From the NCBI GenBank assembly GCA_005191425.1, contig SUPR01000169.1, positions 1 to 5,552 of the forward strand: a stretch of 5,552 nucleotides of DNA, written 5' to 3'. Under the pieces are notes generated by a model. The model was not told the origin of the DNA. It saw only the letters and a program-made list of their open reading frames with translations, and did no database searches. Position numbers and translations under genes: made by a program. Below, piece by piece: positions 1 through 5,551 of the stretch. This DNA is from Candidatus Helarchaeota ASGARD archaeon Hel_GB_B (GTDB lineage: Archaea > Asgardarchaeota > Lokiarchaeia > Helarchaeales > HEL-GB-B). Within the stretch, counting starts at the first letter, position 1. Each line of letters begins with the position of its first letter.

Positions 1-283
1 TTTGTTTTTGCATACTTTCAAAACGCTTATTAACCTCTTCAAAACGCTTGTCCATTTGTTTTTGCATACTTTCAAAATGCTTATTAACCTCTTCAAAACG
101 CTTGTCCATTTGTTTTTGCATACTTTCAAAACGCTTATTAACCTCTTCAAAACGCTTGTCCATTTGTTTTTGCATACTTTCAAAACGCTTGTCCATTTGT
201 TTTTGCATACTTTCAAAACGCTTGTCCATTTGTTTTTGCATACTTTCAAAATGCTTATTAACCTCTTCAAAACGCTTGTTCAT
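1..283 (-). repeat. Coding composite tandem repeat of 33-bp (A) and 21-bp (B) units
   Basis: On the + strand A=ttcaaaacgcttgtccatttgtttttgcatact lies at 38-70, 92-124, 146-178, 179-211 and 212-244 (five identical copies), with a partial copy at 1-16 and a degenerate one at 266-283. B=ttcaaaa(c/t)gcttattaacctc lies at 17-37, 71-91, 125-145 and 245-265 (one SNP, Arg/His). Both unit lengths are multiples of 3. Confidence 0.98.
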
Positions 284-424
284 TATGTCTATTATTTCTT
301 TAATATCTTCTCTTGTTGCAACTACTCCTGATAATGCAGTTATTATCGCTCCTTTTATTGCATCATTTTCTTTTATTAATCTTGGTAATTCTCTTTTTAA
401 TTCATCTAAATCTATTGGAGACAT
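2..424 (-). CDS. Trimeric coiled-coil protein with beta-layer neck (DUF3782-like; possibly a C-terminal PD-(D/E)XK nuclease beyond the window), 3'-partial
   Basis: Hand translation from ATG at 424..422 (in-frame TAA just upstream at 433..431) is open to the left edge, 141 codons: MSPIDLDELKRELPRLIKENDAIKGAIITALSGVVATREDIKEIIDIMNKRFE-EVNKHFE-(SMQKQMDKRFE)x3-EVNKRFE-SMQKQMDKRFE-EVNKHFE-SMQKQMDKRFE-EVNKRFE-SMQKQ... It has coiled-coil composition and a TATA box 24 nt upstream. It is probably absent from the ORF track because no stop lies in the window. The CDS is well supported; the family assignment is from recalled motif similarity and the nuclease domain is not visible. Confidence 0.9.
   Translation of the reverse strand, partial: MSPIDLDELKRELPRLIKENDAIKGAIITALSGVVATREDIKEIIDIMNKRFEEVNKHFESMQKQMDKRFESMQKQMDKRFESMQKQMDKRFEEVNKRFESMQKQMDKRFEEVNKHFESMQKQMDKRFEEVNKRFESMQKQ
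302..322 (-). other. Beta-layer motif VATREDI at the head-to-stalk transition
   Basis: The translation reads V-A-T-R-E-D-I immediately before the coiled coil. This matches the [VML]ATKxD[LI] beta-layer consensus known from trimeric alpha/beta coiled coils (Tcar0761, DUF1640 and DUF3782 families). Confidence 0.7.
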
Positions 425-553: not shown

Positions 554-3500
554 TCATTTATGGTCGGACAATTTTTCTTTATAAACTCTTGTTTTTGTTG
601 TCTTATATCCATATTTTTCTGCTAATTCCTCCACAGTTTTCTCATTAATATTAAGTTTAGTTGCAATCTTTGTTTTTGAAATAAATTTTCCAGGTAATGT
701 TTCGATTAAATTTTTAAATTTATTTATAATGGCATCATGTGTTCCTAATTCATCTTGGTCATTCATTCTTTTTTCTGTAGTATTTTTTTCTTTTATTTCT
801 TTACTTTCTTTTTCATCTGTTTCTTTTAATTTATCTGAGGTATCTTTTTTATCTGTCTTATCGAAATCTTCCTTATGTTTACTTTCTAGCTCAAAAGAAA
901 AGTTCTTATTAAATTGCGGAATTATAATTCCTTTATTTCTAAAGTCTATTAGACTAAAAAGAATTGATTCTAAAGAGGTTTTTTTCTCTGACGTTAATAT
1001 TGGTAAAATATCAGTTATATAAAATTGATCTTCTGGAATTGGGAATCTATAATATTGTCCAATTAATTGATTAAAGCGCTTTACTAAATTATTAATTTCA
1101 GTATTTTTAGTAAATGTTTTATATTTTATTTTATGTTCAGGTATTTTTATTGATTTATTAATATATTCTTGAATTTTCTTGAGTGCTAATTTATTCAATT
1201 TATCTGATATACTAGATAATCGTTTTTGGTCATTTGTCAGTTTAAATGGATAAATTAGTTTTAAGTTAAAGTATAAATCAAAAATGTCATCAAATAATTC
1301 ATAGTCTAATTTTTTACTATCAAGAACTTCTTTGATATCATTACATGCCTTTATAAAGTTGTCTTTGAACTCTTTATCTTCATAAATTTTAGTTAATATC
1401 ATAATTCTTACTTTACCGATATCTGCATAGATATTGTCTATTTCATCTATTTCTATTTCTTTTAATGCAGAGATTTCTTGGTACTTCTGTCCGCTTAGTT
1501 TTCTAATTTCATCTTTAACTCCGGTTTTATTAGGGTCTTCAAAGCATCTAATATAACTTATCTCCTTCTTTTTATTTTTCCCATCTACTTCTAAGCTACC
1601 AATGATTATAATACAACGTAAATTTAAGGCTCTATTAAACTTCTTGATGATAAATTCAATCCTGTCCTTTTTATAAATAATATATGGTTTTCCACGTTTT
1701 ATCACATAATAACTACTTATACTGATACTTCCAATTATTACAAAAAGCACAATTAAAGCGATTAACCAGCTCCAATCAACTTTTTTAAACGGTACATTGA
1801 TTACAAATCTGATCGAAGTTAGTTTAAATCCGACAATTTCTATTGTAATATTTAAAATATGGGTGCCCGTAAAATTTGCAGTGAAATTAAAGTCATATCG
1901 TCCTGGTTGTGACATGTTTTCAAAAATCTTTTTATTATCAACATAAAAGTTGCCTCCACTTACTGGTCTTCCCGTTATATTGTCTTTATACATAACTGTA
2001 ATCTTAACAGTTTCTCCTAAATTCATTATTAAAGTTAATCCTTCAGGTTCCTTTAATTCACCATTAATATATAATTCAACTTTAATTGGCCGGCTTAAAA
2101 CTCTAATTTTTATAATAGTTATATTTGATTCATAGTTTGAGTTCAATGTAGCATTAATTATAAATGTAAAATTATTCACTACTGTTCCATTATATTTTAG
2201 TCTGTATATTCCATTACCAAGGTCTTTAAAGGACGTGGAGTTCAACTTGACAGTTGCATTTGGGAGTCCTTGAGCCGTTAATAAATCAGTATAATTCAGG
2301 TCTATAATTACTGACTGGTTATAATAAAGTGAATATTCTAGAACTTGTGACCCGTTCATTTTAATCGTTAATTTTGTGAGTCTTTTGAGCACGTTAATTG
2401 TAATATTGATCAATTTTGTTGAATAACCGTATTTCGATATATTAATAGTCAGGTAGTGTATTCCAATATTTGTAGCGTTGAAAACCCAGGTATAATTACC
2501 ATTCCCAATCTCTTGCATTTTCCACGAATCTAATCCAAGATTAACCATAGCAGTAGCATTTATTATTCCAGAACCATCAAATGTATTATTAAATTGAACA
2601 GAAACTCTACAAGATTGGTTATAATATATGGTATAATTTACTAATACACACTGATTTATGTAGACGCTATAATTAGTCGGGTAATTTATTACATGGATTG
2701 TAATAATTGTCTTATTAAATTTGAACCCATATTTTGAACCGTTTATTATGAATTTAAAGTCTCCAATTTGAGTGGCATTATACGTCCAGGTATAATTCCC
2801 ATTTCCTATTTCTTGCATTTTCCATGAATTAATGCTAAATTCATCGGAAATATTTAGCTCTGCGCCATGAATTCCTGTCCCATTTAAAGTATTATTATAA
2901 AATGCAGTAATGGTACATGATTGATTATAGTATAATGTATAATTAAATGTGAGTGAATTATTAACATAAATTGAAATATTTGTTGGATATTCTAAAATAT
3001 GAACTATAATTTTTATTTCAGAACTCATAAATCCATATTTCGTTCCATTTATTGTATATTGAAAATTTCCAATCTGAGTACCAATTAAAGTCCATGAATA
3101 ATTTCCTGCTCCTAATTCCGACATTGACCAGGTATTTAGACCAAGGGTTATATTTAATTTTGCATTTGAAATACCTATTCCATCGTAGGTGTCGTTGTAA
3201 AACGCAGTAATAATGATACTTTCTCCAAAATAAATTGAAGTTTCATTTATCGATGGTCCATTGATATATGGAATAATATTAGTAGGTCTGGAGACTACAT
3301 TAATTGAAATAAAAGTTTCATTATATTTATAACCATGTTTTGTCCCATTTACCTTAAAATTCAATAACCCTAGCGTATTTGCATGGAATAGCCATGTATA
3401 ATTACCAAATCCAATTTCAGTCATCTCAATTCCGCTTATATTCACTTTAGCATTTATTATTCCAATATTATCTATTAAATCCTCAAAATAAGCAGTAATT

Positions 3501-5551
3501 TGAACGCTAGTCCCATAATAGCAGGTAATATTATATTCAATTGATTTATTCATATAAATTGTAATATTTGTTAATTTTTCTATTATTCTTATTTTAATTG
3601 TTTTTTCTGCATATTGTTTGTCTGGCCTACTAGCATTAATCAGTAAATTAAATTCATAGGGCAAATCCACTTTATTATACCAATCTTGGGCTCTGAAGAT
3701 CCAGCTATAATTTCCACCACCTAATTCAGCCATTTGATATCTTGTATCATTCCAAAGGACTGTAATATTCACGCTTGCCGACTCTATTCCTTGACCTATT
3801 GCAGTATCATTATAGAATGCAGTAATATTGATTATCTCATCAAAATATATATCTATAGTAGTAAGTAATGTTCCATTTAAATAGGTAACAATATTTGTAT
3901 AACCAACTACAATTGTAAAGAATGATTGGTTTAATGTGTAGCCTGTTTTAACTGAATCTACTCTAAAATTATATACACCTGAACTATTAGGGTCAAAAGT
4001 CCATGTGTAATTTCCATTCCCAGCCGGAGTCATTGGGGCATTATTGGCAATCATACTATTCGTTATACATGTAATATTTACAAGTCCATTAATTATTGGA
4101 CTCGAATGTAATATATCCTCAAAATATATCACGATTCCTATAGTATCGTTGGCTTTAATTATATAATAATTTGTTCTACTATTGTTTAAATATACTGTTG
4201 AATTCGTTGGAATTGGGTCCACTTGAATATAATGAACTTCATTTTGTTTTTGATATCCATATAATGTAGCATTAATAAATATGGTAAAATTATAAGGAAG
4301 AGAAACATATCTACCCCAAATTGAAGCATTAAACAAGTAATAATAAGAGCCATTAGTAATATAATGCATTTTTTCTATTGTATTATTCCATAATATTGTG
4401 ATGTTAACCGATTCTTTATCAATTCCAATATGATGATATGTATCTACAAATGTTCCTGAAATATTGATAAATTCATCAAAATAAATTCTTTGAGAAGTAT
4501 TTAGGTTTGTTATCAATTGCGTCGGAATTTCTAATACTTTTATCGATAATGTCGTTTCGTAGTATTTAAACCCGTATTTCGTTGCGTTTATTGTAAAATT
4601 GAAAGTACCTGTATTAGTACCATTAAAAATGAATGTATAATTTCCATTACCCACTTCATTCATAACCCAAGTTGGGTTTAATGTTATATTTACTGAGGCC
4701 CCATCTATTCCTTCATTTCTTAGCGTGTCATTATAATATGCTGTAATTAATATCGTTTCATTATAATAAATCGACCAATTATTTGTAATCGAACCATTTA
4801 CATATATCGTAATATTTGTTTTCCTTTCAATTACATGTATGTCAAATTCTAAACTCGCGTTTATATATCCATATTTACTTGCATTTATTCTATAATGAAA
4901 ATCGCCAAGGTTTGTCCCATTAAATATATATTGATAAAAACCTGTCCCATTTCCATTTAATGCAATTGTATCATTAAGTTTCACGTTTGCATTACTTATT
5001 CCTTCTCTTGTATATGTATTATTAAATAATATTTCTAATATTAATGTCTCATTATAATATATAGTCCTATTAACTTGAACTGTAGAATTCATATATAATA
5101 CTAAATTCGTTGGGTTCCTTATTACGTGGATTAAAAACGTAATTGTTTGGCCTACATACCCATATTTACTTGTGTTAATTACGTAATAAAAATCGCCTAA
5201 AAGCGTCCCATTGAACCTATACGAATAGAAACCTGATGAATTCCCAGTCAGTTCAGTTGTTGTATTTAAAGTAACATTTGCATTTGGTATTCCTGTTCCT
5301 AAATATGTGTTATTATATAATACCTCAATTGTCAAATTCTCATTATAATAAATCATCGTTTCATTTGTTATTGTTGAGTTTATATACAATACCAAATTAG
5401 TCGGATACTCTATTACTTGAATATTCAATGTATTTTCTGCAATTTTATATCCATATCTCGTTGCGTTAATATAAAAATTAAATGTTGAAATGGTCGTCCC
5501 TTTAAATGTATACGTATAATTTCCATTTCCTGCTGATGTCATAGTTTCCAT
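554..5551 (-). CDS. Large glycosylated single-pass cell-surface protein with tandem Ig-like repeats and a multi-domain cytoplasmic tail, 5'-partial
   Basis: Uninterrupted 1665-codon ORF ending in TGA at 556..554. The first Met lies inside a repeat (METMTSAGNGNY compares with APMTPAGNGNY in repeat 5) and there is no signal peptide, so the true start is probably beyond the right edge. Architecture: repeats aa 1-1254, TM aa 1260-1284, basic stop-transfer KRGKPYIIYKK, then a cytoplasmic tail. Confidence 0.95.
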   Translation of the reverse strand: METMTSAGNGNYTYTFKGTTISTFNFYINATRYGYKIAENTLNIQVIEYPTNLVLYINSTITNETMIYYNENLTIEVLYNNTYLGTGIPNANVTLNTTTELTGNSSGFYSYRFNGTLLGDFYYVINTSKYGYVGQTITFLIHVIRNPTNLVLYMNSTVQVNRTIYYNETLILEILFNNTYTREGISNANVKLNDTIALNGNGTGFYQYIFNGTNLGDFHYRINASKYGYINASLEFDIHVIERKTNITIYVNGSITNNWSIYYNETILITAYYNDTLRNEGIDGASVNITLNPTWVMNEVGNGNYTFIFNGTNTGTFNFTINATKYGFKYYETTLSIKVLEIPTQLITNLNTSQRIYFDEFINISGTFVDTYHHIGIDKESVNITILWNNTIEKMHYITNGSYYYLFNASIWGRYVSLPYNFTIFINATLYGYQKQNEVHYIQVDPIPTNSTVYLNNSRTNYYIIKANDTIGIVIYFEDILHSSPIINGLVNITCITNSMIANNAPMTPAGNGNYTWTFDPNSSGVYNFRVDSVKTGYTLNQSFFTIVVGYTNIVTYLNGTLLTTIDIYFDEIINITAFYNDTAIGQGIESASVNITVLWNDTRYQMAELGGGNYSWIFRAQDWYNKVDLPYEFNLLINASRPDKQYAEKTIKIRIIEKLTNITIYMNKSIEYNITCYYGTSVQITAYFEDLIDNIGIINAKVNISGIEMTEIGFGNYTWLFHANTLGLLNFKVNGTKHGYKYNETFISINVVSRPTNIIPYINGPSINETSIYFGESIIITAFYNDTYDGIGISNAKLNITLGLNTWSMSELGAGNYSWTLIGTQIGNFQYTINGTKYGFMSSEIKIIVHILEYPTNISIYVNNSLTFNYTLYYNQSCTITAFYNNTLNGTGIHGAELNISDEFSINSWKMQEIGNGNYTWTYNATQIGDFKFIINGSKYGFKFNKTIITIHVINYPTNYSVYINQCVLVNYTIYYNQSCRVSVQFNNTFDGSGIINATAMVNLGLDSWKMQEIGNGNYTWVFNATNIGIHYLTINISKYGYSTKLINITINVLKRLTKLTIKMNGSQVLEYSLYYNQSVIIDLNYTDLLTAQGLPNATVKLNSTSFKDLGNGIYRLKYNGTVVNNFTFIINATLNSNYESNITIIKIRVLSRPIKVELYINGELKEPEGLTLIMNLGETVKITVMYKDNITGRPVSGGNFYVDNKKIFENMSQPGRYDFNFTANFTGTHILNITIEIVGFKLTSIRFVINVPFKKVDWSWLIALIVLFVIIGSISISSYYVIKRGKPYIIYKKDRIEFIIKKFNRALNLRCIIIIGSLEVDGKNKKKEISYIRCFEDPNKTGVKDEIRKLSGQKYQEISALKEIEIDEIDNIYADIGKVRIMILTKIYEDKEFKDNFIKACNDIKEVLDSKKLDYELFDDIFDLYFNLKLIYPFKLTNDQKRLSSISDKLNKLALKKIQEYINKSIKIPEHKIKYKTFTKNTEINNLVKRFNQLIGQYYRFPIPEDQFYITDILPILTSEKKTSLESILFSLIDFRNKGIIIPQFNKNFSFELESKHKEDFDKTDKKDTSDKLKETDEKESKEIKEKNTTEKRMNDQDELGTHDAIINKFKNLIETLPGKFISKTKIATKLNINEKTVEELAEKYGYKTTKTRVYKEKLSDHK
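572..739 (-). other. C-terminal helix-turn-helix or winged-helix-like domain
   Basis: aa 1605-1660: ISKTKIATKLNINEKTVEELAEKYGY fits the HTH pattern (S..EIA..L.I...TV..L) and is followed by a basic wing-like KTTKTRVYK. Confidence 0.55.
749..895 (-). other. Highly charged low-complexity linker, likely disordered
   Basis: aa 1553-1601 FELESKHKEDFDKTDKKDTSDKLKETDEKESKEIKEKNTTEKRMNDQDE is dominated by K, E, D and T. Confidence 0.75.
1238..1654 (-). other. Juxtamembrane cytoplasmic domain, divergent longin/roadblock-like
   Basis: aa 1300-1438: KKFNRALNLRCIIII...SYIRCF...NIYADIGKVRIMIL...FKDNFIKACNDIKEVL...FDLYFNLKLIYPFKL. The strand/helix order and the flanking KF..xN[LI]xxIII and F..F...LIYP motifs resemble post-TM domains I recall from Asgard membrane proteins. 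Not verified by search. Confidence 0.4.
1700..1774 (-). other. Single transmembrane helix
   Basis: aa 1260-1284 WSWLIALIVLFVIIGSISISSYYVI, flanked by W and Y residues and followed by KRGKP..KK (positive-inside rule), giving N-out/C-in topology. Confidence 0.9.
1790..5551 (-). repeat. Protein-level array of 12 complete plus 1 partial ~96-108-aa Ig-like beta-sandwich domains
   Basis: Recurring motif xPT(N)...IYY/FNE...GI.NA.V...M...GNGNY.W/Y.F..T..G.F...IN.TKYG(Y/F)...I.V. Repeat starts are near aa 49, 146, 243, 342, 447, 551, 659, 755, 855, 957, 1057 and 1154. The repeat periodicity is directly seen; the Ig-like fold is inferred from alternating beta-strand patterns. Confidence 0.85.

Follow-up and report, generated by a model that had tools for sequence, protein, structure and literature searches.

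The 5,552-base stretch of DNA analysed here, hereafter the window, is the entire contig C80 (SUPR01000169.1) of genome G000, a 3.5-Mb, 94% complete assembly of an archaeon from the phylum named Promethearchaeota at NCBI. The window is AT-rich (GC 23-29%) and carries on its reverse strand an open reading frame (ORF), P0001, that encodes the C-terminal part of a giant surface protein. Since the window is the whole contig and the frame runs to its end, the N-terminus of P0001 is absent. Near-identical copies from sister assemblies are 2310 and 2614 amino acids (aa) long and are also N-truncated by contig ends; over the last 406 residues, 402 positions are shared between P0001 and these copies. 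The subject of this study is the cytoplasmic tail of P0001, which carries a two-domain cassette with a predicted longin-type fold and ends in a winged helix. For comparison, we used G001, another species of the same genus, and G002, G004 and G006 from the same order, together with P0005 (the same-genus homologue of P0001), P0006 (the relative in G002) and P0008 (a metagenomic fragment). The features discussed below are collected in Table 1.

Table 1. Features of the P0001 locus and of related loci. Positions without a prefix refer to the window.
Feature	Position	Strand	Remarks
Giant surface-protein ORF P0001	554..5551	-	1665 aa visible; stop codon 554-556; 5' end lost at contig end
Ectodomain, aa 1-1259	1775..5551	-	~12 sequon-rich Ig-like repeats, each about 100 aa long
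Single transmembrane helix, aa 1260-1284	1700..1774	-	Hydropathy scan
Juxtamembrane helix (aa 1295-1310) and predicted longin-type alpha/beta domain (aa 1309-1434)	1250..1669	-	AF2 m95f2b058f164, structural matches, hhalign
Second half of cassette, aa 1435-1550	902..1249	-	AF2 secondary structure, alignment to canonical copies
K/E-rich low-complexity linker, aa 1556-1597	761..886	-	64% charged residues
Terminal winged helix, aa 1598-1665 (H1-S1-H2-H3-S2-S3)	557..760	-	AF2 mf2b323f60b8f, VIA
Start of next gene, coiled-coil DUF3782 protein	2..424	-	281 aa in sister assemblies (L003:8019-8864)
G000 giant glycoprotein with canonical cassette	C106:26807-31846
G000 giant glycoprotein with canonical cassette	C134:12309-17408
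G000 giant glycoprotein with canonical cassette	C132:2048-6595
G000 giant glycoprotein with canonical cassette	C124:19462-25050
Cassette-type longin fused to small GTPase, G000	C131:21459-22346	-	L049
Soluble protein with terminal winged helix, G000	C150:4910-5404	+	165 aa; L062:1327-1821
Equivalent of the C150 protein, G001	L012:1321-1695	-	124 aa
Soluble HEAT/PBS-lyase-like cassette protein	L018:1489-3168	-
Soluble HEAT/PBS-lyase-like cassette protein	L025:1-1683	+
GIFT regions	L003:10910-12388 and 15516-17236; L006:80-1462; L008:3-1124

The visible part of P0001 consists of a repetitive ectodomain, a single transmembrane (TM) helix and a 381-aa tail. The immunoglobulin (Ig)-like repeats of the ectodomain are spaced 97-102 aa apart, and a K-Y-G-Y/F motif closes each of them; Pfam gave nothing above threshold on this region, with Big_7 and Filamin remaining below it. 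The hydropathy scan detected aa 1255-1285 as the sole strongly hydrophobic 19-mer run in P0001, and the basic juxtamembrane stretch KRGKPYIIYKKDR follows directly after the TM helix. The ectodomain contains 98 N-x-S/T sequons where 27 were expected from composition, whereas the tail contains 4 versus an expected 2.5. On account of this asymmetry and of the positive-inside residues, we conclude that the repeats face the outside of the cell and that the tail is cytoplasmic. The full-length product, which exceeds 2600 aa, is an Ig-repeat surface protein with heavy N-glycosylation and a single C-terminal TM anchor. A first-pass annotation of this DNA had read the span 557-1774 as part of an ectodomain-TM-tail arrangement with a tail of ~380 aa. 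This was borne out by the hydropathy scan, the tail length and the sequon asymmetry, and the span corresponds exactly to the TM helix plus the tail.

The part of the tail closest to the membrane was modelled with AlphaFold2 (AF2) as aa 1285-1555, from a 20-row alignment. The resulting cassette model reached a predicted local distance difference test score (pLDDT) of 82.9 and a predicted template-modelling score of 0.83. Its alpha/beta domain, a five-stranded antiparallel sheet with helices, has the longin-type order b1-b2-a1-(b3)-b4-b5-a2-a3, formed by the model elements E27-38, E43-52, H56-69, (E84), E89-94, E97-103, H109-127 and H133-149. An exhaustive structural comparison with VIA against 48,161 PDB representatives returned longin or roadblock domains as 29 of the 31 top matches (Z 9.6 to 6.7, model residues 25-150). 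At the head of the list stood VAMP7 (4afi_B, Z 9.6 over 109 aa at 3.4 Å; 2vx8_A, Z 9.5), followed by SYBL1 (8.9), AP-3 sigma (8.6), synbindin (8.5), delta-COP (8.1), SRX and Sec22 (8.0 each), sedlin (7.8), a Lokiarchaeal Roadblock-Longin protein (7.4), and C9orf72-SMCR8, FLCN and Lst4 (about 7). PDB rows among these matches were 2dmw (8.9), 7p3x_S (8.6), 2zmv (8.5), 5ck3 (8.0) and 3egd_C (8.0). The roadblock proteins MglB (6.7), MK-D1 Roadblock3 (6.5) and LAMTOR (6.2) gave shorter matches that ended at residue ~130. Roadblock domains follow the order a-b-b-a-b-b-b and lack the second C-terminal helix. Z-scores were lower against roadblock domains than against longins, an N-terminal helix was also present, and no match to Pfam Robl_LC7 was found.

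Other structure searches pointed in the same direction at lower strength. The best Foldseek rows for the cassette model, all weak, were AP-2 sigma, zeta-COP and sedlin, and no row reached E ≤ 1e-3 in Foldseek against the PDB for either the cassette or the terminal winged-helix model. ESM Atlas rows comprised zeta-COP, Longin-SNARE clusters and Asgard longin-Arf fusions. A two-copy homodimer co-fold of the cassette (residues 8-266) scored 0.00, which speaks neither for nor against dimerisation.

The second half of the cassette is made up of a short strand with the motif L-x-Y-P-x-x-L, helices, a lineage-specific extra helix of ~35 aa, and a winged-helix-like unit at aa 1484-1545. This unit, with the order H-S-H-H-S, contains FYITDIL...GIIIP and ends in R-N-K-G-I-I-I-P. 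Its secondary-structure order fits a winged helix; one weak VIA row fell on this half (6ec8_A, Z 6.0), and Pfam hints were isolated. The lysine/glutamate (K/E)-rich linker that follows forms a disordered, flexible tether. The I-I-I-P motif and the terminal domain's K-F-I-S-K strand lie 80 aa apart in P0001 and 145 aa apart in P0005.

The terminal domain was modelled by AF2 from 11 rows (pLDDT 81.1) as a textbook winged helix spanning aa 1601-1660. All 50 of its top 50 VIA matches were winged helices (Z 8.6-6.2, residues 1-68), the best being the PCI winged helix of Rpn12 (Z 8.6; 62 aa, 1.9 Å). Further matches included the Z-alpha domain of ZBP1 and NiaR (7.9 each), with E2F, ScpB, IclR and BirA near 7. 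Sub-threshold sequence matches of this domain were all to helix-turn-helix (HTH) or winged HTH (wHTH) families, namely NUMOD1, HTH_17, HTH_26, Rv2175c_wHTH and the arginine repressor. The wing, G-Y-K/R-x-T-K-S/T-R-I/V-Y-K, is basic and represents the most conserved feature. The exposed face of helix 3 bears conserved acidic residues, with an acidic residue at the E1642 position in 10 of 11 sequences. MAFFT placed internal winged helices of canonical copies on the terminal one; kinship of the two winged helices was rejected, as hhalign assigned it a probability of 0.6%.

Strong matches to the terminal winged helix were found in the order of the host only, and elsewhere just weak, partial ones turned up. 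The domain invariably occupies the extreme C-terminus after a K/E-rich linker. Within the giant-protein lineage, G000 and G001 have one copy, G002 and G006 have two in tandem, and G004 has one where a fragment ends. The sole other copy in G000 resides in the soluble C150 protein, which matches HTH_10 above the cut-off and whose C-terminus looks ribbon-helix-helix (RHH)-like by eye. An equivalent is present in G001; the HTH_10 scan covered the G000 copy only. This G001 gene adjoins TFB/TFE-like ORFs and a serA-like gene.

Single-sequence searches did not connect the tail of P0001 to any larger family. Apart from its own cluster, a phmmer search against 1.84 billion representatives returned a single metagenomic fragment of 39% identity (P0008), a word-indexed single-sequence search returned the tail itself only, and a related-locus search with the tail found no relative. 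BLASTP gave no significant alignment between the tails of P0001 and G002, and P0005, in the other species of the genus, is 43% identical to the P0001 tail. A profile of the P0001 group plus P0006, however, gave weak matches across the phylum, and these revealed a canonical module. The link to this canonical cassette thus surfaced with profiles only. In the canonical cassette, a longin domain is joined through a helical linker to a winged helix, over about 230-260 aa in all, and the whole is placed right after a TM helix. Its consensus reads I-I-H-K-x-x-G-x-x-I-Y ... D-x-D-L-I-S-G-F-L-x-A-I-x-x-F ... Y-x-x-F-x-I-x-x-x-D-G-x-Y-x-R-x-A-L-I-L in the first part, D-L-x-E-x-x-F-x-x-x-L-x-Y-P-x-x-L in the second and F-F-I-x-x-L-L ... 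E-L-R-x-K-G-I-I-I-P in the third. No Pfam or NCBIfam family covers the canonical cassettes or the P0001 tail.

Comparison of the P0001-group profile with 14 canonical cassettes by hhalign yielded a probability of 96.6% (E 6e-10) over 202 co-linear columns. A hidden Markov model (HMM) built from six canonical copies scored P0006 at 2e-16 and P0005 at 2.5e-6, the latter co-linear over positions 16-232. Based on these profile matches, we conclude that the tail of P0001 holds a diverged member of the Asgard cassette family. The P0001 cassette begins within about 25 residues of the TM helix and closes with L-R-x-K-G-I-I-x-P, as in the canonical copies, and whole Asgard cassettes in the ESM Atlas matched the model with template-modelling scores of 0.59-0.63 over residues 7-268; an ESM Atlas feature search on the cassette gave scores that were all ≤0.81 and served as leads only. 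The extra helix corresponds to an insert of about 35 residues before the last cassette domain. Comparison of the two congeneric species gave 43-45% identity over the cassette; the core positions and both the Y-P and the G-I-I-I-P motif have been preserved, and frameshifts and stops are absent.

The family to which this cassette belongs is very large, and P0001 is no one-off system. Among the sampled genomes of the Asgard phylum, which define the scope of this count, the canonical cassette was detected (E ≤ 1e-8) in 288 of 301, including 89 of the 90 high-quality ones; the genomes are usually multi-copy, mostly with ORFs of 700-3000 aa. Close relatives of one canonical copy came from Promethearchaeota/Promethearchaeia, Thor-, Hermod- and Hodarchaeota or from unlabelled metagenome-assembled genomes of uncultured archaea. 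ESM Atlas clusters of the cassette shape were 99-100% archaeal and labelled 'hypothetical protein'. The relatives of the tail found in these searches are Asgard archaeal and not bacterial; mainly bacterial homologues with a known non-signalling role would have spoken against the first-pass annotation. Canonical cassettes occur together with ectodomains of very different kinds and, in one case, in a soluble protein of HEAT repeats. In G042 and G053, which belong to another Asgard family, a soluble protein of HEAT/PBS-lyase-like repeats ends in the cassette, and no TM helix was detected in this protein. Given these soluble carriers, the cassette is found outside membrane proteins as well.

In G000 itself, 31 ORFs match the canonical HMM. 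Four of them encode other giant single-pass glycoproteins of 1516-1863 aa with 55-65 sequons before the TM helix; the remainder includes soluble multidomain proteins and some ten alpha/beta domains that stand alone and measure 140-170 aa. Two of the four giants have an extra TPR-like helical tail of about 215 aa, and the C124 giant ends in a CxxC...CxxC zinc-ribbon-like motif. Contigs C102, C106, C136, C139, C147 and C164 each carry two cassette- or longin-family ORFs, 1-15 kb apart, which suggests local clustering. The stand-alone paralogues matched Sybindin (2e-4), Longin (8e-4, 4e-3 and 4e-3), Fuz_longin_1, SRP-alpha_N and MAPKK1_Int in Pfam below threshold. In addition, the ORF on C131 combines a cassette-type longin with an Arf/Ras/Roc-like small GTPase (Arf 8e-17).

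Together, the uniform VIA list, the Pfam hints of the paralogues and the GTPase fusion agree, and on this ground we call the fold predicted for the alpha/beta region of the tail longin-type. No match of the P0001 tail to a curated longin family was found in Pfam or NCBIfam. As the paralogues reach merely E 2e-4 to 5e-3, under the curated cut-offs, we file the domain as a longin fold and not as a member of the Pfam longin family. The tail did not adopt an unrelated structure in the AF2 model and the VIA and Foldseek comparisons. An alpha/beta region had been placed at aa 1300-1438 with a possible longin/roadblock-like fold, and both the region and, of the two folds, the longin were supported. 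Likewise, the helical stretch noted behind it was recovered at aa 1435-1483 of the model, and what had been called a terminal HTH proved to be a full winged helix. For the FYITDIL segment (aa 1510-1545), the suggested winged-helix likeness stood as far as the order of secondary-structure elements is concerned, whereas the structural support for it is weak. The architecture and the folds as described here are, in our judgement, highly probable.

With respect to gene neighbourhood, the DUF3782 gene lies 130 nt downstream of P0001 on the same strand (Pfam 29.6 versus a cut-off of 24.4 bits). In three genomes of the order, the giant gene has a gene for a GIFT-domain protein close by (IFT52_GIFT 4e-14 and 6e-13; the G002 copy was recognised by eye), and the copy in G006 also matches ABC_transp_aux. 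In G002 and G006 the GIFT gene adjoins the giant gene and converges with it. In the sister assembly it lies three genes downstream and is followed by genes for an ABC-2 permease and an ABC ATPase, an arrangement reminiscent of the GldA/F/G set of gliding bacteria.

We lean, with modest confidence, towards viewing P0001 as a giant glycoprotein with a modular cytoplasmic docking tail. The tail would serve as a membrane-proximal docking scaffold, in which the longin face may bind another longin/roadblock protein or a small Arf/Rag-like GTPase. We infer this role from the way longin domains act in TRAPP, Mon1-Ccz1, FLCN, NPRL2/3, SRX and AP sigma. The tethered terminal winged helix could hold a second, order-specific partner, which might be a protein, in a PCI-like manner, or a polyanion such as nucleic acid. 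Through both domains, the surface coat or adhesin would be connected with machinery in the cytoplasm, and the direction may be either inward, as in contact sensing, or outward, in the positioning or sorting of the surface protein. Candidate partners, that is longin/roadblock proteins and small GTPases, are abundant in G000, where one GTPase is fused to a cassette-family domain. By itself, the specific claim that the tail docks a GTPase or a longin partner is doubtful, and we put it forward tentatively by analogy. The adhesion receptor of the first-pass annotation, which would pass surface contact on to GTPase-related or transcriptional output, is likewise hypothetical.

Several observations weigh against the docking-tail reading. 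A common fold alone is no proof of function, and the Z-scores of 8-9.6 are just moderately over the background of 7-8 stated for the tool. In the cassette model, strand b3 is poorly defined, with pLDDT <50 at residues 77-86. By itself, the canonical HMM reaches no better than E 9e-4 on P0001; the a1 motif D-x-D-L-I-S-G-F-L-x-A-I-x-x-F, the most conserved in the family, gives way to an unrelated sequence in P0001, P0005 and P0008, and the b1-b2 hairpin of P0001 has a 7-aa insert. No small-GTPase or longin gene was found beside the P0001 gene in the 18 kb visible in the sister assembly. Finally, a related giant in G006, with a like ectodomain and TM helix, is without the cassette, yet has two terminal winged helices. 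Because of this relative, the cassette is dispensable in the giant-protein lineage, and the terminal winged helix, which G006 keeps, is the constant part of the lineage tail.

Some of these points are shared by the view that P0001 is a passive anchor, a structural coat protein or adhesin whose tail merely fixes or spaces it through self-association or binding to cytoskeleton or envelope, with neither GTPase nor signal. Stalks of repetitive, glycosylated Ig-like domains are a familiar trait of archaeal surface proteins, the vicinity of P0001 encodes neither a signalling enzyme nor a GTPase, the neighbours being the coiled-coil DUF3782 protein and then the GIFT-domain protein and the ABC-2 transporter, and the conserved a1 motif of the family has been lost in P0001. 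However, the presence of the cassette in nearly all sampled Asgard genomes, on many ectodomains and on soluble proteins, argues for a specific cytoplasmic partner over a spacer, and its domain family is also fused to an Arf-like GTPase in G000. We regard a purely passive anchor as unlikely.

Still less probable is that P0001 acts as a membrane-tethered regulator whose terminal winged helix binds DNA or RNA, either at the membrane or after proteolysis, following a ToxR/CadC-type logic. The canonical winged-helix fold of the domain, its sub-threshold HTH-family matches, its conserved basic wing and the long flexible tether before it would all suit such a role, as would the other copies in small soluble proteins with an HTH_10 match (G000) and, by eye, an RHH-like segment. 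On the other hand, the conserved acidic residues on the exposed face of helix 3 would be unusual for a DNA-reading helix, and in structure the domain comes closest to the PCI winged helices of Rpn12, which bind protein. Moreover, no Pfam DNA-binding family scored over threshold for the terminal domain, and neither a cleavage site nor a protease partner was seen.

A contact receptor is a further, very unlikely reading. Engagement or clustering of the ectodomain would alter the partner of the longin platform, be it an Arf/Rag-like GTPase or a longin adaptor, and the winged helix would relay this to a DNA-bound partner, for instance the winged-helix-RHH protein of C150. If true, a signal would run from a receptor through a small GTPase to transcription in prokaryotes, and in those most closely related to eukaryotes. 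The idea of a relic, in which the cassette decays in this lineage and function is left to the terminal winged helix alone, would account for the loss of the a1 motif, the residues inserted into the hairpin and ahead of the winged helix, and the cassette-free G006 relative, but it is equally improbable in view of the identity and motifs retained between two species, the confident AF2 fold and the intact frame.

Asgard genomes contain dozens of longin, roadblock and small-GTPase genes of unknown cellular role (PMC10933270, PMC4917890). A longin cassette wired inside surface glycoproteins gives Asgard longins a fixed location and a candidate input, and the roles of Asgard longins and GTPases thereby become testable from defined tails. 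What is new in P0001 is the strongly diverged cassette in combination with an extra, order-specific terminal winged helix; its lineage is an example of how a single group of related proteins can let the cassette diverge strongly or do without it.

A literature search whose coverage mostly excluded subscription journals yielded no paper on TM-tethered longin-winged-helix tails of giant surface glycoproteins. Among known systems, the ToxR/CadC regulators resemble P0001 in that they, too, attach a winged helix to a membrane protein that has one TM segment and an external domain. Their winged helix is N-terminal, however, whereas that of P0001 is C-terminal, and DNA binding by the latter is hypothetical. 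Membership in the ToxR/CadC-like group (Trans_reg_C, N-terminal OmpR-type wHTH) was rejected on this position and on the lack of a Trans_reg_C match at E up to 1. Another architectural parallel is found in archaeal ESCRT loci, where a PCI-like winged helix ends membrane Ig-repeat Ser/Thr kinases (PMC11188069). Like P0001, these are membrane proteins with Ig-like repeats and a small C-terminal winged helix, and the PCI winged helix of Rpn12 was the best match of P0001. The likeness is structural and architectural; P0001 has no kinase domain, and its visible neighbourhood has no ESCRT genes.

Longin domains provide docking platforms, often as dimers, for Rab, Arf, Rag and SR-beta GTPases, and roadblock domains too form dimeric platforms for small GTPases (PMC10933270). 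The eukaryotic longins of VAMP7/Sec22/Ykt6, AP/COPI sigma/zeta/mu, sedlin/synbindin and SRX share the predicted fold of P0001 (Z 8.0-9.6 over 106-123 residues). In contrast to these, P0001 shows no significant sequence match (5-12% identity) and no SNARE motif, and its longin follows the TM helix, whereas eukaryotic longins precede a tail anchor. NPRL2/NPRL3 of GATOR1, FLCN-FNIP, C9orf72-SMCR8 and the Asgard NPRL2-like longins (bioRxiv 10.1101/2020.10.19.343400) combine a longin with a further C-terminal domain, as P0001 does, and their longins align at Z 6.5-7.4. The longin-containing GTPase-activating proteins for Rag and Arf are soluble complexes, however, and only the longin part of P0001 aligned with them, with no DENN or NPRL C-terminal domain detected.

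Asgard genomes are known for expansions of longin and roadblock domains, for NPRL2-like longins and for longin-GTPase fusions (PMC4917890, bioRxiv 10.1101/2020.10.19.343400, PMC10933270). The Asgard longin-GTPase and Roadblock-Longin proteins (PMC10933270; PDB 8yqg, 9m28) belong to the same superfamily as P0001 (8yqg_B, Z 7.4; 9m28_A, Z 7.8), but P0001 lacks a GTPase domain, is membrane-anchored and has a giant ectodomain. The nearest relative is the unnamed Asgard cassette of TM helix, longin, linker and winged helix described above, with which P0001 shares the position after the TM helix, the L-x-Y-P-x-x-L and L-R-x-K-G-I-I-I-P motifs and the predicted fold. P0001 departs from it by the lost a1 motif, the hairpin insert, the extra helix, and the addition of a disordered linker and a terminal winged helix.

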